This document shows positions 35,699-58,750 of a stretch of 64,000 nt of DNA, piece after piece; the stretch's first letter is position 1, and each line of letters starts with the position of its first letter. Origin of the DNA: Gemmatimonadota bacterium (lineage in GTDB: Bacteria > Gemmatimonadota > Gemmatimonadetes > Longimicrobiales > Gaopeijiaceae); assembly GCA_034521595.1 (NCBI GenBank), contig JAXHMG010000003.1, forward strand, positions 1,376,001-1,440,000. Reading direction: 5' to 3'. Both the position numbers and the translations under genes were made by a program. Under the pieces are notes generated by a model. It saw only the letters and a program-made list of their open reading frames with translations. It was not told where the DNA came from and made no database searches.

Positions 35699-36870
35699 GC
35701 GAAGTCTCCGTCATGACCCTCACCATAGGAGCTGTGCTCCTTCTGGGACTCGTGGCGGATGCTCTGGCGAGCCGGACCCCCCTACCCCGCGTGACCGTCC
35801 TCATGCTGCTGGGCGTCCTCGCCGGCCCCACCGGCTTCGACCTCCTCCCGCCAGGTCAGGAGACCTGGTTCACGGTGACGGCGGACATTGCCCTCGTGAT
35901 GATCGGCTTCCTCCTGGGCAGCGAGTTCACGAGGAAGCATGTGCAGGAGCTGGAAGCGGTGGTCTTCCGCATCGCCATCATGCAGTCGGTAATCACGGCA
36001 GCGATGGTGGGAGGAGGTCTCCTCGTCGTCGGCGTCCCGCCCGAGATCGCGCTTCCCCTGGGGGGGATCGCCACCGCCACCGCTCCCGCCGCCACCCTGG
36101 CGGTGGTGAAAGAGTCGGGAGCTCGCGGCCGTTTTGTGGATGTCCTCAAGGGGGTCGTTGCCGTGGACGACATCATGGGCATCGTTCTCTTCACCGTGCT
36201 GGTCGCCGGTTCGGGAATCTTGACGGGGGACGGTACCCATGCCGATGCCCTCGTCGAGGGCATACGCGAGATCGCGGGCTCCATCCTCCTGGGTCTCGCC
36301 ATCGGTCTCCCCGCTTCCCGTCTCACGGGCCGGATACGGCCGGGCGAGGCGACGCTGGAGGAGGCGCTCGGGCTGGTTCTTCTATGCGCAGGCCTCGCCG
36401 GTTGGCTCGATGTGCCGCCCATCCTCACGGCCATCGTCATGGGCGCGAGCCTGGCCAACCTCGCCCACCACCACGAGCGAGCCTTCCACGAGATCGAGAG
36501 GATCGAGTGGCCGTTTCTCGTGGTCTTCTTCGTATTGGCGGGGGCCTCACTGGAGGTCCGAGTCCTGGAGTCCGTGGGTTGGCTGGCCGCGGGCTATGTG
36601 ATCCTCCGCATCGCCGGGAAGCTTCTGGGGGCCGCGCTGGGCGCACGCTGGGCATCGATCGACGGTGTCATCGCTCGGTGGCTCGGCCTGGCTCTGCTGC
36701 CCCAGGCCGGAGTGGCACTGGGGCTCGCGCTGGCCGCGAGCCTACGGTTCCCGGAAGCCGGGACGACGGTCTTGAACGTCGTCGTGGCCGCGACCGTGCT
36801 GTTCGAGCTCGCGGGTCCCCTCCTTACCCGACTCGCCCTACAGCGGACGGGCACCATAAAACAGCCGTGA
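35695..36870 (+). CDS. Cation:proton antiporter (CPA superfamily)
   Basis: Many TM helices; ATAPAAT, AVDD, FFVLAG, LLPQAGVALG. Confidence 0.85.
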   Translation: MSEVSVMTLTIGAVLLLGLVADALASRTPLPRVTVLMLLGVLAGPTGFDLLPPGQETWFTVTADIALVMIGFLLGSEFTRKHVQELEAVVFRIAIMQSVITAAMVGGGLLVVGVPPEIALPLGGIATATAPAATLAVVKESGARGRFVDVLKGVVAVDDIMGIVLFTVLVAGSGILTGDGTHADALVEGIREIAGSILLGLAIGLPASRLTGRIRPGEATLEEALGLVLLCAGLAGWLDVPPILTAIVMGASLANLAHHHERAFHEIERIEWPFLVVFFVLAGASLEVRVLESVGWLAAGYVILRIAGKLLGAALGARWASIDGVIARWLGLALLPQAGVALGLALAASLRFPEAGTTVLNVVVAATVLFELAGPLLTRLALQRTGTIKQP

Positions 36871-36897
36871 CGGGCCCTTGCGGCCGTTTCCGAAGAC

Positions 36898-37650
36898 GGC
36901 CCGCTGGCGCGGGTCACCCGCTCGGGCCGCTCGGCTCAAACCCACTTTGCGCTCTCCTCCGGAGATCGCCGTGGGTTCGACGCCACGATGACTCGACCCG
37001 GCAGCTCGTAGGATCCTGCCGGTACTTTCAACGGAGGGGGTGGGATGGAGCTCCGGGCGCGCCTGCGGCGCGTCCTCGCTCGGCTCGCGGACCCCCTTGG
37101 CCGGCCCGCTCCGCGGGACACCCGCTCGGGCCGCTCGGCTCGAACCCACTTCGCGCTCTCCTGCGGAGATCGCCGTGGGTTCGACGCCACGATGACTCGA
37201 CCCGGCAGCTCGTAGGACCCTGTCGGTACTTCCAACGGAGGGGGTGGGATGAGCTCCGGGCGCGCCTGCGGCGCGTCCTCGCTCGGCTCGCGGACCCCCT
37301 CGCCGGGCCCGCTGCGCGGGACACCCCGCTGGGCCGCTCGGCTCGAACCCACTCGGCGCTCGCCTGCCGGAGATCGCCGTGCGGTTCGACGCCACGATGC
37401 ACCGACCCGGCGAGCTCGTAGACTCCTGTCGGTTACTTCCAAGCGGAGGGGTGGGATCGGAGCTCCGGGCGCGCCTGCGGCGCGTCCTCGCTCGGCTCGC
37501 GGACCCCCTTGGCGGGCCCGCTCCGCGGGACAGCCCGCTCGGGCCGCTCGGCTCGAACCCACTTCGCGCTCTCCTCTGGAGATCGCCGTGGGTTCGACAG
37601 TCAGGCGAGGAAGCAAATAAGCCTCTACCGACCAAAAAGGTCGGTCGAAA
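36898..37650 (-). repeat. tRNA-Ser-linked tandem array, about 3.4 copies of a 204-208 bp unit
   Basis: Copies of the tRNA 3' end (CGGAGGGGGTGGGAT on +) at 37032, 37236 and 37444 versus the real gene end at 37651; CCCGCTCGGGCCGCTCGGCTCGAACCCAC recurs near 36917, 37121, 37325 and 37534. Confidence 0.92.
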
Positions 37651-37734
37651 CGGAGGGGGTGGGATTCGAACCCACGTGGGCTTGCGCCCGCCGGTTTTCA
37701 AGACCGGTGCAATGAACCGCTCTGCCACCCCTCC
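37651..37734 (-). tRNA. tRNA-Ser (anticodon UGA), CCA not encoded
   Basis: Acceptor GGAGGGG/CCCCTCC with G73; anticodon arm CCGGT-CTTGAAA-ACCGG; variable arm GGGC-GCAA-GCCC; T arm GTGGG-TTCGAAT-CCCAC. Confidence 0.97.
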
Positions 37735-37797
37735 AAGGTATTCGAACGATACGAAATTCTGCGGTCGAGCTGCAGGGCCGCGGCCGGGATACCACAC

Positions 37798-37829
37798 AAA
37801 AGCCTCCACGACCGGGAGGTCGTGAGGGC
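37798..37829 (-). terminator. Intrinsic terminator-like hairpin after the duplicated tmRNA 3' end
   Basis: GCCCTCACGACC-TCCC-GGTCGTGGAGGC (one mismatch) followed by TTTTG. Confidence 0.6.
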
Positions 37830-37997
37830 ATGGAGGCGGCGGGCGTCCGCTGCGGTCGGCGCTTTGCGCCGATCCTTGCAGGTCTCGCGGGGAAACCGTA
37901 CCGGGCCATGCGGCGAACACCCGCTTGGCCGCTCGGTTCAAACGCCGCGTTCGGGGCGCTACGCGCCCCCGTGGGTTCGCCTCCCGCTGCCTCCATG
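37829..37997 (-). repeat. tmRNA-linked element with direct and inverted copies of the tmRNA 3' end
   Basis: CATGGAGGCGGCGGG (37829-37843) duplicates 38040-38054; GTGGGTTCGCCTCCCGCTGCCTCCATG (37971-37997) is an inverted copy; interior is homologous to the tRNA-Ser array unit. Confidence 0.85.
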
Positions 37998-38001
37998 GGA
38001 C

Positions 38002-38040
38002 AAACGAAAAGGGCCCTACCGGATCTGACCGATAGGGCCC
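38002..38040 (-). terminator. Intrinsic terminator of tmRNA
   Basis: 12-bp stem GGGCCCTATCGG/CCGGTAGGGCCC followed by TTTTCGTTT, directly after the tmRNA 3' end. Confidence 0.85.
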
Positions 38041-38041
38041 A

Positions 38042-38394
38042 TGGAGGCGGCGGGAGTCGAACCCGCGTCCGCGAATGAATTCAGTAGAGCCTCTACGTGC
38101 GTAGAACGCTGAAAAATCTCGTCACGGCGAGCCAGCGATCAACTCGATCCGCGACCAGCCACCTTGAATCTCGTCTACCGGCTCGGCGGCACAACCGGAA
38201 GACCAGCCCGACTTATCGTCGCCTCAAGGAACGCCTCGGGCGGGCGATCCAGGAGACGGGCTACGTAAGGGTTACTTACGCGGCCAGCGCCATGTTGTTG
38301 TTGGCAGCTATTGAATTTCCCGAGTATTTACGAGGATCAGGACCTCGGCACGCAACTCCACCTTCACCAAACACGTCGAAGCCGTGTCGCCCCC
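38042..38394 (-). ncRNA. ssrA: tmRNA (transfer-messenger RNA); tag (A)ANNNMALAA* at 38276-38305
   Basis: 5' GGGGGCGACACGGCTTCGAC; 3' GGACGCGGGTTCGACTCCCGCCGCCTCCA; G3.U70 Ala identity pair; tag ORF ends ALAA-TAA; 353 nt. Confidence 0.96.
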
Positions 38395-50482: not shown

Positions 50483-50965
50483 TTACTTGAATCCCAGCTC
50501 CGCCGCCAAGTCGACCTTGGGCGCGTCGGGCAGGTCGCGCGCTTGCACGCGCACCCCCTCATCGACCAGACGCCGCACGTCTTCGGCTTCGGACGGTGTG
50601 AGGTGGATGTAGGTGAGGACCTTCTTTCTCCCCGGTCCGTGGTGGAGGCCACCGACGTTGACGGTCCGCCCCTTCAGGGCCGCCCCTTCGGCGAGCCGCC
50701 GCATGGTGGCCACGTCGCGGGTCAGAATGACCGTGCGGGACGCGTCGTCGCCGTACTCCGCGAGCGCGGCCGCCGCCTCCGACGCGGTGAGGAAGACCAC
50801 GTCCGTGCCGCCCGCGCCCAGCCGGTACAGACCCTGCTCCCACTCGCTCTCGGCAAGCGTGTCATCCACCACCACGTACCGATCCGGACGCAGCTCGTGG
50901 CCCCATCCGATGACCACCTGCCCATGGATGAGACGCTCGTCGACCCGCAAGAGGACGATGGACAC
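50483..50965 (-). CDS. PTS mannose family IIB component
   Basis: RVDERLIHGQV (phospho-His), VNVGG. Confidence 0.9.
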   Translation of the reverse strand: MSIVLLRVDERLIHGQVVIGWGHELRPDRYVVVDDTLAESEWEQGLYRLGAGGTDVVFLTASEAAAALAEYGDDASRTVILTRDVATMRRLAEGAALKGRTVNVGGLHHGPGRKKVLTYIHLTPSEAEDVRRLVDEGVRVQARDLPDAPKVDLAAELGFK

Positions 50966-50968
50966 CGC

Positions 50969-51376
50969 TCACCCCGCGGGCGTGCGGTCGGCCGACACCG
51001 GCCGAATCGCGCTCCGGCCTCTATCGACGAGCCGCTGCTCGAGCTCCTCGAACGGAAGCCCTCGATTGAACACGAAATCGAGAAGCATGGGCAGGTTCAC
51101 CCCGGTCACCACGATGCGATCGGCGCATGCGCGGCACGACGCGAGCGCCGCCGTGCAGCAACTCCCGGCTTGCAAGTCCACGAACACGATCGCGGCACCC
51201 TCACCGGCAGCCTCCTCGATCCGGGCCTGAACGTCTTCGGGTGACAGGCCCTCATTGGAAAGGGGCACGAGCGCATCCGCCGCCGAGCCGGCGATATGCC
51301 GAACCGCGTCGACCAGTCCGACGGCCATGGTGCCGTGCGCGAGCACGACCCCGGTGCGCGCCACCGGGTCACTCAT
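50969..51376 (-). CDS. PTS mannose family IIA component
   Basis: VLAHG, VDL.AGS, TGVNLPML. Confidence 0.88.
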   Translation of the reverse strand: MSDPVARTGVVLAHGTMAVGLVDAVRHIAGSAADALVPLSNEGLSPEDVQARIEEAAGEGAAIVFVDLQAGSCCTAALASCRACADRIVVTGVNLPMLLDFVFNRGLPFEELEQRLVDRGRSAIRPVSADRTPAG

Positions 51377-52334
51377 AGTCCTGCTCCAGGTACTGCCGCA
51401 GCCGCTTGTCGAACGAGTCCGCGGAGTGGATGCCCGAATAGGTCAGCAGATGGTTCATGGCCACGACCTCCGAGATCACCGTGATGTTCTTTCCGGGGTT
51501 CAGAGGCACGGTCACCTTCGGAATCTCCACCCCGAGGATCTCGTGGGTTTCCACGTCCAGACCGGTACGCGTATAGCGGCCGTCTTGGTCCCACGTCTCG
51601 AGCTGGACGACGACTTCGATCCGCTTCTGCTGACGGATCGCGGTCACGCCGAAGAGCGCCGAGACGTCGATGATCCCCACCCCCCGGATCTCCATGTGGT
51701 GGCGTTGCAGCTCGTGGCCGCGCCCCATCAGGACGTCGTTGCCGGTCCGCCGCACGAGGATGAGATCGTCGGCGACGAGCCTGTGTCCCCGTTCCACGAG
51801 ATCCAGCACGCATTCGCTCTTCCCGATCCCGCTCTCGCCGATGAAGAGCAAACCCACCCCGTACACGTCCGCCATCGATCCGTGGAGCGCCGTGGTCGGC
51901 GCGAGAACCATCTCGAGGAACGGCTTGATGCGGTGGTAGAACTCGCGCGTCGTCGCCGAAGAGCGAAGAACCGGAATCTCGCGAGCGCTGGCACACTCGA
52001 GGAAATACGTGGGAATGTCCTGGCCCTTGGTCACGAAGACCGCGGGCATCCCGAACGAGAAGAACGCCTCGAGCCGCTCCCTCGCTTCCGTCCGGTCGAG
52101 GGTCGCCATGTAGGTCATCTCGGTCTCGCCGAACACCCAAAGCCGTCCCGACGGCACCCGTGCCATGTGGCCGGCCAGCGCGAGGCCGGGCGAGGTGATG
52201 TCCGCGTCGTCGGTGGTGCCGTCGAGGGGCACCCCGTCGTTCATGACCTCGAGTCCCAGCGTGTCGCGCTTGACGTCCAGGACTTCCCGAACGGAGATAC
52301 GCTTGGATTCGGCGCCTTCAGACTCCTCCATCAC
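51369..52334 (-). CDS. hprK: HPr(Ser) kinase/phosphorylase
   Basis: HGS..DVYGVG, GESGIGKSECVLDL, LVADD, MEIRGVGII. Confidence 0.95.
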   Translation of the reverse strand: MMEESEGAESKRISVREVLDVKRDTLGLEVMNDGVPLDGTTDDADITSPGLALAGHMARVPSGRLWVFGETEMTYMATLDRTEARERLEAFFSFGMPAVFVTKGQDIPTYFLECASAREIPVLRSSATTREFYHRIKPFLEMVLAPTTALHGSMADVYGVGLLFIGESGIGKSECVLDLVERGHRLVADDLILVRRTGNDVLMGRGHELQRHHMEIRGVGIIDVSALFGVTAIRQQKRIEVVVQLETWDQDGRYTRTGLDVETHEILGVEIPKVTVPLNPGKNITVISEVVAMNHLLTYSGIHSADSFDKRLRQYLEQDYE

Positions 52335-52340
52335 GTTCCG

Positions 52341-52667
52341 TCAGTCCCCGGTGACCCGGTCCTGAAGCGGCGGAGCCTGGTGCTCCCGCTCCTTCTTGCG
52401 CTGCTCACGCAGCATCCGGCCCACGCGACTGACCACCTGGTCCACGGCCGCCCTGAACTCGTCGGCCTCTCCGTGGCCGACCACAGGGGGCGCGCCGTCG
52501 GCATGCACGATCACCTCGACCTTGCGACTGACTCTCTCCTCCTCGAACACGACATCGGCCGAGGTGGCTCGAGGATGGAACTTGGAGAGCGAAGCCACCT
52601 GCTCGCGGGCCCGCTCGAGGACGTCGTCCGGCACGTCGCAGTGACGTGTGGCCATCTGGATTCTCAA
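52341..52667 (-). CDS. hpf: Ribosome hibernation promoting factor (short HPF/RaiA)
   Basis: IQMATRH start and AAVDQV..RV.RML; GAGGAG before TTG; position next to hprK. Confidence 0.8.
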   Translation of the reverse strand: MRIQMATRHCDVPDDVLERAREQVASLSKFHPRATSADVVFEEERVSRKVEVIVHADGAPPVVGHGEADEFRAAVDQVVSRVGRMLREQRKKEREHQAPPLQDRVTGD

Positions 52668-52691
52668 GGCATCTCCTCATCTCGAATGATG

Positions 52692-52700
52692 AAGCTACCA
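52692..52700 (-). promoter_or_regulatory. Candidate extended -10 (TG-G-TAGCTT) internal promoter for hpf-hprK-PTS
   Basis: TGGTAGCTT in an AT-richer intergenic gap about 25 nt upstream of the hpf start. Confidence 0.45.
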
Positions 52701-52713
52701 TACCCTTCGGAAG

Positions 52714-53838
52714 TTAGCCGGCCACGGTCGGAGCGACCACCCGCTCGAGCACCCGCTCCACGCCGTCCGCGGTCGCCTCCCAGGAAAAGCCGTTTGCGAA
52801 CGCCCGGGCCTCTTCCGACATGCGGGACCAGCGGTCGTCCTCTGTCGTGAGGCTGATCAACGCCGAGGTGAGCGCGTCCACGTCGCCATGGGGCACGAGA
52901 ACGCCGGTTCGCCCCGCAACCACCGACTCGCGGAGCCCGGGAGCGTCACTCGCGACGGTGGGCGTTCCGCACGCCGCCGCCTCGATGTTCGTGATCCCCC
53001 ATCCTTCCTTGGCGGACGTCAGCACGTGGACCCGAGACTTCCGGAGGATGTCGACCTTGCGCTCTTCCGACACGAATCCGAGAAACGTGACCCGCTCGGA
53101 TATTCCGAGCCGTTCGGCGAGGCGTTCGAGGACATTCCGCTCGTCTCCGGCGCCCGCCACCAGCAGCCGAGCCCGCAGGCCACGGTCGGCCATGGCCCGC
53201 ACGGCCCGGAGGACGAGGTCCAGGCGCTTGTAGCGGTTGAGGCGCCCGACGAAAACCAACGTGGGCTCTTCGAAGCGCTCCTCCGGGGAGGCCGGCTCGA
53301 ACCGCTCGAGGTCGATCCCGTTGTGCACGACCGTGATCCGGGATTCATCGAGTCCCCGACCCACCAGGTCGTCGCGAGTCCCGTCCGAGACGGCGATCAC
53401 CGGAACGTCGCGATAGGCCCGTGGCACCGCGGACTCCAGAAGGACGGTCGCCAGCGCCACCGGCGCGGACGCGGCCTCGAACGCCGTGGCGCCGAACAGA
53501 TGGTGGACGAGCAAAGCCGTCGGGACGCCCGCGCCCCACCAGGGCGTGAAGACAGGCACCTTGTTCAGGTCCTCGACGACCACGTCGAACGCCCGCTGAC
53601 GAAGCTCGCGACGGAAGTAGCGCGGAGCGGCCACGGAGAAACTCAGACGCGTTCCGGTCCGGTGCACGTCGAGGCCGTCCAGCTCGGTCCTGGTGGCACA
53701 CCCGGGCCATCCGGACACGAGAGCGGTCACCGCATGCCCCCGGGACGCGAGACGTCCGAACGTCTCGTGCAAGTGGATCTCCGCTCCACCCGCCCGCGGA
53801 TTCTCGCGGTCCAGCCAGTTCACGACGAGAATGCGCAA
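52714..53838 (-). CDS. Glycosyltransferase family 4
   Basis: AGGAE, NGID, FVGRL..YK, EGWGITNIEAAACG. Confidence 0.9.
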   Translation of the reverse strand: MRILVVNWLDRENPRAGGAEIHLHETFGRLASRGHAVTALVSGWPGCATRTELDGLDVHRTGTRLSFSVAAPRYFRRELRQRAFDVVVEDLNKVPVFTPWWGAGVPTALLVHHLFGATAFEAASAPVALATVLLESAVPRAYRDVPVIAVSDGTRDDLVGRGLDESRITVVHNGIDLERFEPASPEERFEEPTLVFVGRLNRYKRLDLVLRAVRAMADRGLRARLLVAGAGDERNVLERLAERLGISERVTFLGFVSEERKVDILRKSRVHVLTSAKEGWGITNIEAAACGTPTVASDAPGLRESVVAGRTGVLVPHGDVDALTSALISLTTEDDRWSRMSEEARAFANGFSWEATADGVERVLERVVAPTVAG

Positions 53839-53854
53839 CGGGCGCGTGCCCCCC

Positions 53855-54334
53855 TCACGCTTCGTCCGGCTTTCGATCTCCCTCGTCTCGCTCCGGAAGC
53901 TGCTTGTAGAGGGCGTCGAGGACGCCGTTGACGAACCGCGGCGACTCGTCCCCCCCGTACGCCTCCGCGAGGCGGATCGCCTCCTGGATGCTGACCTTGG
54001 GGGGAATCTCGTCGTCGTAGAGGAGCTCCGCGGCGCCGATCCGGAGAATCGCCCGGTCCATCGCGGCCAACCGGTCCAATCGCCAGTTCTGGAGCGCCCG
54101 CTGGAGCGCTTCGTCGATCTCCTGCCCGTGCTCGTCCAGCGTGGACATGAGGTTGCGCACCTGCGGCACCCGGCGGGGTGAGACGCGCCGGGTCGCCATC
54201 GTGTCCATCAGGGCGTCACGCAGCGTGCCCTCACGACCGCCGCTCTCCCAGCGGTAGTGCACCTGCAACGCCCACATGCGGGCACGGATCCGGTCCAAGC
54301 GCTGACTCCGGTCGAGCCCCACCACGCCGCTCAT
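53855..54334 (-). CDS. nusB: Transcription antitermination factor NusB
   Basis: NWRLDRLAAMDRAILR, EAIRLA..YG, FVNGVLD. Confidence 0.92.
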   Translation of the reverse strand: MSGVVGLDRSQRLDRIRARMWALQVHYRWESGGREGTLRDALMDTMATRRVSPRRVPQVRNLMSTLDEHGQEIDEALQRALQNWRLDRLAAMDRAILRIGAAELLYDDEIPPKVSIQEAIRLAEAYGGDESPRFVNGVLDALYKQLPERDEGDRKPDEA

Positions 54335-56638: not shown

Positions 56639-57753
56639 CAGGGCTCTGTCCGGTCGAAGGTGAGCAAGGTGTCACGACCGAAGATCGCGGGATCGGGGCC
56701 CGGCTCGAAACCGCTCCAATCCAGCCGGTCCGCGTCGTCCGTGAACGCCGGCAGGCCACCGCCCCCCAGAGTGAGGGGCGCGACGAAGAGATAGAGACGC
56801 TGCACCCGCCCCTCCGCGAGCAGGCGACCGGCGAGCTTCCTCCCTCCCTCACACAGCACCGAGCGGACGCCGAGGTCCCAGAGCACCCCGGTCACCCGCC
56901 CGAGGTCGAGCCCGTGGGCATCTTCCTCGACCGGATGCACTTCGATGCCCCGGTCTTCGAGCCGCTCGATCCGACGCGCATCGACCCCTTCCCCGGTGAA
57001 CAGGTGGACCGGCGCCTCCGGGTCGTCGGAATCGAGCACCGCGGCGTCGTCCGGAACCGAAGCACCCGGGTCGAGAATCACCCGACGGGTCGGCCGCGCG
57101 CCCCTCGGAGCCAGTCGGACCGTGAGCCGGGGATCGTCGGCCCGGAGGGTGCCGGCGCCGACCATCACCGCGTCGAACCCCGACCGGAGCCGGTGCACCT
57201 CACGCTCCGCCTCCGGACCCGTGATCCGCGTGCGGGTGCCGGGCGCGGCGGCGATGCGGGCGTCGAGCGACATCGCGAGCTTCAACGCCACGAACGGGGT
57301 TTCGTGCCGTGCCGTGTGGAAGAACGCCGGGTTCTCCCTCCGCCCCTCCCGCTCCGACCACAGCGGCCCGACGACCTCCACCCCCGCCGCTCGGAGCGTG
57401 GCCGCCCCCCCACGGGAGACGTGGCCCGGGTCGGAAGCGCCATAGACGAGCCGGGCGATGCCGGCCCGGATCAGCGCCCGCGAGCACGGCGGCGTCTTCC
57501 CCTGGTGGTTGCAGGGCTCGAGCGTGACGTAGGCGGTGGCTCCCTCCGCCGCGCTCCCCGCGGCCTCGAGCGCCACGATCTCGGCGTGGGGCCCTCCGAA
57601 GCGGGCGTGGAAGCCTTCGCCCACGACCCGGCCGTCCCGCACCAGCACGCAGCCGACCAGGGGGTTCGGTTGTACCCGACCCCAACCCTCGTGGGCGAGG
57701 TGGCGGGCACGCTCCAGGTAATCGAGGTCTTCCGGTGAGGTGGTCGCGCTCAC
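56638..57753 (-). CDS. ribD: Riboflavin biosynthesis deaminase/reductase
   Basis: PNPLVG, HAE, TLEPCNHQGKTPPC, AMSLD, EGG. Confidence 0.95.
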   Translation of the reverse strand: MSATTSPEDLDYLERARHLAHEGWGRVQPNPLVGCVLVRDGRVVGEGFHARFGGPHAEIVALEAAGSAAEGATAYVTLEPCNHQGKTPPCSRALIRAGIARLVYGASDPGHVSRGGAATLRAAGVEVVGPLWSEREGRRENPAFFHTARHETPFVALKLAMSLDARIAAAPGTRTRITGPEAEREVHRLRSGFDAVMVGAGTLRADDPRLTVRLAPRGARPTRRVILDPGASVPDDAAVLDSDDPEAPVHLFTGEGVDARRIERLEDRGIEVHPVEEDAHGLDLGRVTGVLWDLGVRSVLCEGGRKLAGRLLAEGRVQRLYLFVAPLTLGGGGLPAFTDDADRLDWSGFEPGPDPAIFGRDTLLTFDRTEP

Positions 57754-57769
57754 GGCATCGAGGGCCGGC

Positions 57770-58750
57770 TCATGGCGTGAACCGGAGCGAGAGCGAGCCG
57801 AACGGGGTCCCTTCCTCCGGGTCGAACGTCGACCCAGCCCCCCCGGGCACCGGCGCGTATCCGTCCGCCCATCCCCCTTCGACCGAGAGCTGGAGGAGCA
57901 GAAAGTTCAGCGCCGCTCCCACGAAGTACAGCTTCCTTTCGGCGTCGACCGACGACGAGACGCGCACGGATTCACCCCCCGCGCCGGGCACTTCCAGCAC
58001 GGCGTCCGCGGCGGCGTCCTCCCACCCGACGCCCGCGAGCACGCCGAGCCCGAAGAGGTCCTTGCCCACGGTCGCCCGGAGCGAGGTCACGGCCGGATCC
58101 ACCTCGAGCCTGGCGGGATCACCGAGCGAGGGGTCCCCCATCTCGAAAGAGCCGACGAACCGCCGCGCGACCGACACGCTCACACCGGGCAGCGTGAACG
58201 ACTCGCGAAGCAGGCCCACCCGGACTCCGACCGATGCGCCCGTCACGTTCCCCTGAAAGCCCTGGGAGGACGGAGGCATGACGAGCCCGGCCGAGCCGAA
58301 CACGTCCAGGGAGAACACCCCGCCGACGGTCGCGAGCGGCGAGAAGCCGTCCAGGATCCCCGCCGCGACCGCGAGATTCAGCGACGGCACCATGAACGAG
58401 ACTTCCGGAGCCCGTCCCGGACCCTGATCGAAGATGTCGGGCATTCCCACCGACATCCCCCCGGCGCGGAACGCGGCGGTGAACCGCGGCTGATTCCCGA
58501 TCCTGCGCCCGAGCGTGGACGAGGATCCCGCGATCTCCGAGCCCCATCCCACGAGCAGGCTCCCCTCGCCCGTGAGCGTCCGGGCGCCGACGGCGACGTC
58601 GGTGCACCGGTTCAGATTCCCCCCGAGCTCCACGCATCGGCCGCGGAGCTGTCCGGGCGTTTGGGCGCTCACGGCTTCGGCCATGAGAAGGGCGAGACAG
58701 ACCGCACAGGCCGACATCAACCGGCTCGCGCCGCACCGGCCCAAGGTCAT
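57770..58750 (-). CDS. Hypothetical outer-membrane beta-barrel-like protein
   Basis: Signal peptide (..AVSA-Q); alternating amphipathic strands; C-terminal FGSLSLRF. Confidence 0.6.
   Translation of the reverse strand: MTLGRCGASRLMSACAVCLALLMAEAVSAQTPGQLRGRCVELGGNLNRCTDVAVGARTLTGEGSLLVGWGSEIAGSSSTLGRRIGNQPRFTAAFRAGGMSVGMPDIFDQGPGRAPEVSFMVPSLNLAVAAGILDGFSPLATVGGVFSLDVFGSAGLVMPPSSQGFQGNVTGASVGVRVGLLRESFTLPGVSVSVARRFVGSFEMGDPSLGDPARLEVDPAVTSLRATVGKDLFGLGVLAGVGWEDAAADAVLEVPGAGGESVRVSSSVDAERKLYFVGAALNFLLLQLSVEGGWADGYAPVPGGAGSTFDPEEGTPFGSLSLRFTP

Follow-up and report, generated by a model that had tools for sequence, protein, structure and literature searches.

Introduction

Downstream of the genes for tRNA-Ser(UGA) and transfer-messenger RNA (tmRNA) of a Gemmatimonadota bacterium lie repeat units of about 200 bp, each of which carries a copy of the 3' end of the neighbouring RNA gene split in its T-loop by a structured insert, and the question is what these units are: mobile or once mobile DNA, remains of attachment (att) sites, or modules of RNA. 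The locus lies in a stretch of 64,000 nucleotides (the window), G000:C3:1376001-1440000, that is, on contig C3 of the source genome G000 (3.49 Mb, 67-69% guanine + cytosine (GC), three contigs). An initial annotation, made from the sequence of the window, had proposed one family of elements with a conserved core and with flanks matched to each host RNA gene, and had named a mini integrative element, a decoy att site and a tRNA-mimic RNA as candidates. The single family is upheld here, since both a sequence profile and a covariance model (CM) place the tRNA-Ser and the tmRNA units in it. The reading tentatively favoured, with a probability of roughly 0.45, is that the units are Gemmatimonadota tRNA-linked repeats (TLRs), namely a non-coding passenger module of stable-RNA operons that would be co-transcribed with its host RNA, bear tRNA-like ends and spread by local recombination.

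Organization of the repeat units

Every unit, read in the sense of the RNA gene, has the same order of parts: (1) usually a piece antisense to the T-arm of the host RNA, often also to the acceptor 3' strand; (2) a hairpin or short spacer; (3) the 5' strand of the T-stem with the first five nucleotides (nt) of the T-loop (GGTTCGA); (4) the core, about 90-105 nt long, which enters between T-loop nt 58 and 59; and (5) what remains of the T-loop, the 3' strands of T-stem and acceptor, and the discriminator, often with a continuation into the trailer of the gene itself. The junction, TTCGA / core / AT or CT, is common to at least 12 tRNA host species and tmRNA. As proposed initially, the flanks match each host RNA gene and the insertion point in the T-loop is identical in every case.

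All features of the two loci described here are on the minus strand. The tmRNA gene (38042-38394; ARAGORN; Rfam RF00023, 173 bits; tag ANNNMALAA) is followed immediately by an intrinsic terminator, T1, with a 12-bp stem and a T run (38011-38040), and then by a single unit. This unit begins with a piece that is antisense to the T-arm and the acceptor 3' strand of tmRNA and to 3 nt of its trailer (37971-37998; 25/28 by eye; inverted repeats I1 and I8). A small hairpin, GGGGCGC-gua-GCGCCCC (37953-37969, from sequence and fold), separates it from the sense parts: a degenerate T-stem 5' strand with the first 5 T-loop nt, CGCGGCGTTTGAA (37937-37949, from sequence and alignment), the structured core (37847-37936; match to CM R1 at 37841-37946, 71.6 bits) and the tmRNA 3'-end copy from T-loop nt 59 onward, ACGCCCGCCGCCTCCATG (37829-37846; direct repeat D8, 95%, spacing 211). 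In the predicted minimum free energy fold, the antisense piece and the 3' copy pair to form a closing stem. A second predicted intrinsic terminator, T2 (37803-37825), follows the unit, giving a dual-terminator layout. The insert that had been placed at 37846-37937 is thus present, and its span is re-read as 37847-37936, 90 nt long, the earlier limits being 1 nt off at each end.

Behind the tRNA-Ser(UGA) gene (anticodon tga; 37650-37735; ARAGORN and Rfam) lies a tandem array of 3.4 units (36898-37598; Tandem Repeats Finder period 204, 91% matches), in which successive repeats are spaced by 203-210. Its three full cores are found at 37454-37561 (unit 1, CM 76 bits; antisense T-arm piece 37588-37597, 3' copy 37443-37458), 37245-37351 (unit 2, 79.9 bits; 37381-37389 and 37236-37250) and 37042-37148 (unit 3, 79.7 bits, fold z = -3.15; 37175-37184 and 37032-37046). 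A fourth core, of which only the first half remains, ends the array (36888-36942; nhmmer C3:1412942-1412888, E=6e-4). Direct reading of unit 3 bears out the split originally described, in which CGGAGGGGGTGGGAT (37032-37046) and TCGAACCCAC (37140-37149) bracket a 93-nt insert at 37047-37139.

The kinship of the tRNA-Ser and tmRNA inserts, which had been asserted from shared motifs and from 9-bp hairpins that are indeed present in both sequences, stands: a profile made without the tmRNA unit recovers this unit with E=4e-6 over the 3.49-Mb genome. Pairwise similarity alone is modest, with a Smith-Waterman score of 30 against 19.3 +/- 3.3 for dinucleotide shuffles, 12 of 1000 of which scored equally high. 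A comparison with Rfam 15 gave no match of the units to any family at a gathering score, the only matches in the window being to tRNA, tRNA-Sec and tmRNA; no ribozyme or intron was matched by window positions 36800-38100 or by five further loci (L001-L005), where all weak rows were far under threshold. The tRNA-Sec gene (anticodon tca; RF01852, 68.9 bits) lies far from the arrays, at 1757-1853 on the minus strand.

Structure of the core

The core is modelled as a helix, P1, around a variable hairpin, followed by a GC hairpin, P3. In helix P1a (GCGG/CCGC, with the variants GGCG/CGCC, GGGG/CCCC and GGGA/TCCC) and in the terminal P3, changes occur on both sides of the stem, and the hairpin sequences differ between the arrays of the source genome. 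Among 14 copies from this genome, 89.5% of the cells pair, compared with 31-42% when the partners are slid. For 36 sequences of relatives the corresponding values are 93.7% and 31-49%, with double changes at 10 of 17 pairs, in an alignment that was fitted to the CM and is therefore biased toward the proposed structure. In addition, whole units fold better than 200 of 200 shuffles (z = -4.5 and -3.2).

Matching of the flanks to the host gene

From nt 59 to the gene end, no more than one mismatch to the cognate gene is seen in 50 of 91 units of relatives, and in 22 the identity extends for at least 10 nt into the genomic trailer. Because the identity reaches the trailer, the 3' copies must derive from DNA or from a primary transcript and not from mature tRNA. 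The matching follows unusual hosts to some extent. Three loci have a tRNA-Pro(cgg) gene with the T-loop TTCAAAT; the units carry GGTTCAAGCC at two of them (L013, L026) and keep GGTTCGAG at the third (L015), and the antisense piece has TTTGAA at all three.

In some units the antisense piece is also matched to the unit in which it lies. At least 12 of 16 nt of the 3' end recur in antisense within the same unit in 42 of 141 units, compared with 199 of 10602 comparisons with non-cognate controls, and at two loci (L014 and L063) the antisense piece complements the altered 3' copy of its own unit and not the tRNA. The complement of the T-stem 3' and acceptor 3' strands corresponds to the acceptor 5' and T-stem 5' strands, so that the antisense copy together with the 3'-end copy allows the unit to close into a long stem of 12-16 bp with the core as its cap, one side being the tRNA 3' strand and the other the complement of that strand. 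Such a closing stem was found in tmRNA, Cys, Pro(ggg), Pro(cgg) and Arg units; in the Ser units the antisense copy is limited to the T-stem 5' strand and the loop.

Distribution within the source genome

An iterated profile of the core finds 16 places genome-wide, each of which follows a tRNA or tmRNA gene of the same orientation at a distance of 53-783 nt, and R1 finds 15 full copies, the next match having E=0.38. The hosts are tRNA-Ser(tga), tmRNA, tRNA-Cys, tRNA-Pro(cgg, ggg, tgg) and tRNA-Arg(ccg). When the last 14 nt of each of the 50 tRNA and tmRNA genes were sought downstream, ten genes had a copy; nine of these are hosts of the family and the tenth is followed by the next tRNA-Ala gene. 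A complete genome of a sister family without the core had such a copy at 1 of the 46 genes examined, again a second tRNA-Ala gene, in a check for which 30 of 54 tRNA matches were taken as loci and the split-copy architecture was compared in two genomes only. Duplication of the 3' end is tied to the presence of the core.

These results bear on a further explanation, that tRNA 3' flanks were duplicated in tandem, neutrally and without selected structure, or that the arrays encode a small arginine-rich peptide like tpr of Escherichia coli. It would account for the variation in copy number, the truncated units and the long GC-rich open reading frames (ORFs) that cross the array on both strands, and the annotation of E. 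coli has a protamine-like ORF inside a TLR. However, the core is conserved with covariation across genera and host genes, 3'-end duplications are missing where the core is absent (in one sister-family genome, the tRNA-Ala case aside), and unit lengths of 203-211 with indels of 1-2 nt break any reading frame, which makes this explanation very improbable.

A shorter variant of the core, about 82 nt long, was seen at C1:50550-52650 (L001). It starts with GCCGAGCGGGCC and ends with GGAGCCC, is joined to the T-loop in the same way, is accompanied by an antisense TCGAACCCACGC piece, and was missed by both the profile and R1. Its hosts are tRNA-Ser(gct), with two to three decaying units, and tRNA-Ser(gga), with 1.5 units. 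On the same contig (C1, 117 kb) 17 co-oriented tRNA genes are clustered at 50619-54209 with the repeat arrays among the last four, and a few kb from the cluster lies tRNA-Pro(ggg) (57741-57814), the array of which has a period of 325 nt. Behind tRNA-Pro(tgg) (L004, G000:C3:1309700-1310200) the first unit is coreless, reading ACCGGAT-CTCTC-ATCCGGG and then the tRNA 3' end and trailer, and the second is complete; the coreless unit may represent a footprint or a precursor state.

Distribution in relatives and other taxa

R1 matches 33 of 60 other genomes of the same family, including all six of the same genus, and none of 20 genomes in each of two sister families. A motif pattern applied to one genome per species gave 111 stretches, and the named records are overwhelmingly metagenome-assembled genomes (MAGs) of Gemmatimonadota (Longimicrobiales and Gemmatimonadales). 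Twelve loci carry the label of another phylum, with four strong CM matches (L055, L056, L070, L094) and two weak ones, in a Bradymonadaceae (L087, 21.5 bits) and an Actinomycetota (L048, 20.3 bits) record, which at E ~0.003-0.005 are treated as doubtful. Among the strong matches, L094 sits on a 945-kb contig, and L055, L056 and L070 sit on two short contigs (1.5 and 2.8 kb), where mis-binning may explain the labels. Pattern matches in Microbacterium, Accumulibacter, Mesorhizobium, Aenigmatarchaeota, Acidobacteriota and Bryobacterales had no CM match and are taken as chance.

At the loci of relatives, 91 of 139 CM matches have a tRNA or tmRNA gene upstream on the same strand. Of the other 48, 21 have less than 300 nt of upstream DNA, and those matches without an upstream gene that were inspected lie in tRNA gene copies or fragments. 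The expectation that a CM would find matches almost only behind tRNA and tmRNA genes, with covariation, was borne out once gene fragments are included. The 91 hosts comprise Pro(cgg) (24), Ser (18, of four species), Arg(ccg) (15), Cys (13), Pro(ggg) (11), Pro(tgg), tmRNA and Gly(ccc) (3 each) and Tyr (1). Across genomes, the cores that resemble each other most tend to have the same type of host: this holds for 65 of 113 nearest neighbours, compared with a shuffled mean of 16.3 and a maximum of 32, the observed value being slightly inflated by a few host-derived bases in the aligned ends.

Enzymes and genomic islands

The absence of a mobilising enzyme from the window, as first reported, holds for the two families tested, tyrosine recombinases (PF00589) and Y1 transposases (PF01797). 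PF00589 has four matches in the source genome, none of them in the window and none at any array; one, a match of 38 bits in a 188-aa frame (C3:1489787-1490239, minus strand), lies beside tRNA-Leu(taa) (1489552-1489635) and probably represents what is left of an integrase at a tRNA used as att site. PF01797 has no match in the source genome. Y1 transposases were found in 2 of 60 genomes of the core-bearing family, compared with 13 of 20 and 5 of 20 in the coreless sister families, so a Y1 transposase as mobiliser, absent from the source genome and anticorrelated with the core, was rejected. Likewise, the units do not resemble palindrome elements derived from IS200/IS605, since no Y1 enzyme is present in the source genome and the hairpin sequences differ between arrays. 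A phage origin was also rejected, the core being on no viral contig: one pattern gave a single match there (L152), which is not a CM match, and a second pattern gave none. The junctions, checked by eye, fit neither attC boxes, the GTTC target of IS91 nor target duplications of fixed length, and neither archaeal bulge-helix-bulge nor group I/II intron-like pairing.

In relatives, islands occur in tRNA-Ser(tga), tRNA-Cys, tRNA-Pro(ggg) and tmRNA genes (L008, L025, L028, L031, L041, L070), with short direct repeats at their ends (e.g. ATGGCACACA, TGTGCCA) beside displaced 3' fragments, and a HicB-like (UPF0150) ORF lies at one island end (L037:39-431). In the stretches examined, the ORFs beside island-associated copies of the core were DUF4389, PP-binding, UPF0150/HicB-like, hydrolase and aminotransferase only, with no recombinase.

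The initial suggestion of an att-related element has to be weighed against these data. In the form considered here, the units would be integrative elements in relic or miniature form (attL - tiny element - attR), or else decoy att sites, for tyrosine integrases that cross over in the T-loop, with the core as an attP arm. Each unit in fact lies between direct repeats of the tRNA 3' end, which start in the T-loop, and the identity blocks of T-loop-class integrases reportedly also usually start there. Moreover, islands occupy the same tRNA and tmRNA loci in relatives (L008, L025, L028, L031), with the HicB-like ORF at one end, and tandem arrays resemble the accretion of elements at one att site. 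However, the two halves of the T-loop are parted by the core and not contiguous as in attR, the repeats enter the trailer to variable lengths, no array of the source genome has a PF00589 integrase, no viral contig carries the core, and the compensatory changes indicate a folded strand and not duplex protein-binding repeats. 5S rRNA genes are not known to serve as att sites. E. coli TLRs also stand behind 5S rRNA genes according to the accessible text of PMC8144298. An att relic or decoy is accordingly doubtful, and less likely than the insertion discussed in the next section.

Copies of the core inside tRNA bodies

Besides the ordinary units, decayed full-length tRNA copies with the core stand beside the intact gene for tRNA-Ser(tga) (L109/L007) and tRNA-Pro (L090, L117, L061, L049). 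The core is also found in 3' fragments displaced by islands (L041, L070, L095, L046, L085, L092, L119, L111), which run from the anticodon loop and border on DNA with direct repeats, and at L008 and L028 similar displaced fragments without the core are followed by an ordinary unit. In L095, a contig of a Longimicrobiales MAG, a displaced fragment of tRNA-Pro(ggg) holds, at about 400-565, two cores head to tail that are not separated by any tRNA-derived sequence.

These copies look like T-loop insertions, and they bring up the main rival to the favoured reading: that the core is a present or past non-autonomous insertion, targeted to T-loop nt 58/59 and moved in trans, which survives in redundant gene copies and fragments, the repeat units being later elaborations. 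Such an origin would suit the identical junction in at least 12 tRNA host species and tmRNA, the cores within decayed and displaced tRNA copies, the comparable coreless fragments (L008, L028), the doublet in L095 and the patchy distribution; by eye, the core ends even resemble imperfect inverted repeats (GAGC..GCGG / CCGC..GCTC). On the other side, the searches for PF00589 and PF01797 offer no candidate enzyme, Y1 transposases being anticorrelated with the core and tyrosine recombinases being away from the arrays; there is no target-site duplication of fixed length and, in the source genome, no copy outside a tRNA context; hairpins that differ from array to array are ill-suited to sequence-specific recognition of the ends; and the clustering by host type (65/113 vs 16.3) fits long residence better than frequent jumping. 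Furthermore, duplication of ordinary units with deletion between GGTTCGA repeats can also yield the copies in tRNA bodies, which therefore do not prove insertion. We regard this origin as less likely than the favoured reading, yet as a serious rival to it.

A proposed passenger module of stable-RNA operons

The favoured reading treats the units as passengers of stable-RNA operons; their transcription, processing, mode of spread and any cellular role we infer as follows. A unit would be co-transcribed with its host RNA by passage through the first terminator, as between T1 and T2 behind tmRNA. The copied 3' end with its trailer may then recruit the end-processing of the host RNA itself, and the closing stem would shield the ends, so that a discrete and stable small RNA could result, as reported for rtT and RrB of E. 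coli. At the DNA level, the GGTTCGA of the T-loop, which is nearly universal, could serve units without an enzyme of their own as a site of unequal recombination or template switching, by which they would multiply locally, and gene conversion together with selection for the closing stem might keep the flanks matched to the host.

Several observations weigh against this reading. Helix P1b, in which the T-loop GTTCG would pair with an internal CGAGC, has no covariation and is uncompensated in the two TTCAA cases, and for these reasons it is unproven. The strand that folds is not indicated by counts of G.T versus A.C pairs, which are uninformative except for one invariant T.G pair. Four low-share metatranscriptome runs gave contigs over tRNA-Ser and tmRNA only, probably from relatives, and are uninformative either way. 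Copy number is variable, truncated units exist and the family is patchy, with the core in 33 of 60 family genomes and units at only 5 of 29 other tmRNA loci; this patchiness argues against an essential function of the units. In 10 of 128 scored matches the 32 nt upstream of the core are identical at 26 or more positions to a real tRNA body, and no antisense copy is present. As to homology with the E. coli family RtT (RF00391), no unit reaches its gathering threshold of 45 bits, there being no RtT row at E<=10 for window positions 36800-38100 or L001-L005, and R1 gives only 3.6-7.4 bits on four E. coli tyrT units, although on the correct strand and in the correct register.

A bolder version has also been considered. 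In it, TLRs would be old T-loop-anchored modules common to Enterobacteria and Gemmatimonadota that act in cis on the host RNA, the antisense piece pairing with the real 3' half or with the decoy, the core setting a switch for maturation or turnover, and new genes being colonised without an enzyme. We consider it quite improbable.

TLRs have been regarded as an enterobacterial curiosity, and a second, independent set is now available in a distant phylum. It provides comparative material in the form of hundreds of diverged copies with clear covariation, a tmRNA host and copies within whole tRNA genes. With it, constant features can be separated from incidental ones; the junction at nt 58/59, an antisense T-arm that bears the GATGAGAA loop, and the terminal GC hairpin belong to the former. 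The data also frame direct tests of whether the units are RNAs, recombination sites, or both. In addition, because the units mimic both tRNA or tmRNA ends and att sites, they can mislead the prediction of genomic-island boundaries.

Comparison with known systems

Displaced tRNA 3' fragments (attR) remain downstream of tRNA genes after the entry of islands carried by tyrosine integrases. The units resemble them as downstream direct repeats of the tRNA 3' end, and such fragments exist at the same loci in relatives. Unlike attR, the fragment in a unit is split in the T-loop by a structured core, often has an antisense copy, and is not separated from its partner by an element or integrase. Integron attC sites and repetitive extragenic palindromic (REP) sequences with their REPIN forms are likewise short, non-coding, arrayed repeats in which structure is conserved above sequence. 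Unlike these, the units have no R''/R' boxes (by eye), no integron integrase or REP-associated tyrosine transposase (RAYT), and a strict association with the 3' ends of tRNA and tmRNA.

The closest likeness is to the TLRs of E. coli. In a literature search that covered few subscription journals, only PMC8144298 was found to treat TLRs as a family, and none was found outside enterobacteria. [quoted passage not shown] The same text places three of the units, RrA, RrB and RrF, between the dual terminators of rrn operons; they arise by read-through, are processed, carry at their end an 18-bp copy of the 3' end of the stable RNA before them, and bind Hfq and CsrA in vitro. The tmRNA-linked unit likewise lies between T1 and T2, as rrB does between two terminators in rrnB. 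Here the host is tmRNA instead of 5S rRNA, Hfq and CsrA binding is reported for the E. coli RNAs, and sequence similarity between the two groups is undemonstrated.

The E. coli K-12 loci tyrT-tyrV and proK were compared directly. Their TLRs are downstream of tRNA genes, co-oriented and often tandem, and have the same part order as the Gemmatimonadota units. The antisense T-arm (GGGGAAGG-ATGAGAA-GCTTC, or GAGG-ATGAGAA-CCTCC) is followed by a spacer of a few nt and by the T-stem 5' strand of the host with TTCGA; the core starts with CTCGAGCG..AGCGAGAGA and contains a GC hairpin with a short loop; then come AATCC and the rest of the tRNA. In both groups the 3' copy starts at T-loop nt 59, and both have an antisense T-arm with the GATGAGAA loop, GGTTCGA, and a core in which a GC hairpin occurs together with the motif CGAGCG / AGCGAGRGA. 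The initial annotation, in stating that the general class was not new, was therefore correct and even understated the case, since the detailed layout of TLR/RtT is shared, including, in part of the units, the closing stem and the loop.

Two side observations concern the E. coli repeats themselves. In the argQZYV-serV operon of K-12 (L160), the arg-linked TLRs lack the GGTTCGA / CGAGCG part and keep only the 3' half of the core (hairpin and GGCCCGAAGGGCGAGCC..GAGTA), with antisense GGGAGGAT, so that the right junction with the tRNA 3' end is the most constant feature in E. coli. In the accessible text of the mobilome-sequencing preprint bioRxiv 10.1101/2024.07.17.603846, coverage of tyrT-rttR-tpr is raised in exonuclease-treated DNA under several stresses, the authors giving no explanation there; this rise could bear on TLR circles or protected duplexes.

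The Gemmatimonadota units differ from TLRs in having a longer core, with the extra covarying helix P1a and the variable hairpin, in hosts that encode no CCA, in copies that enter the trailer, in having tmRNA as one host and in belonging to another phylum. Because RF00391 fails to score them, while its positive control, the tyrT and proK units of E. coli, gives 101-137 bits, I call them a variant of the TLR kind and not members of RtT. Common descent with the TLRs of E. coli is likely but not demonstrated. In the RtT consensus, the closing stem and the GAUGAGAA loop agree with those seen in part of the Gemmatimonadota units, the loop motif ATGAGARC recurs in 25 of 141 of these units, and the layout at proK, that is, tRNA, terminator, unit, terminator and partial unit, is also that of the tRNA-Arg(ccg) locus of the source genome.

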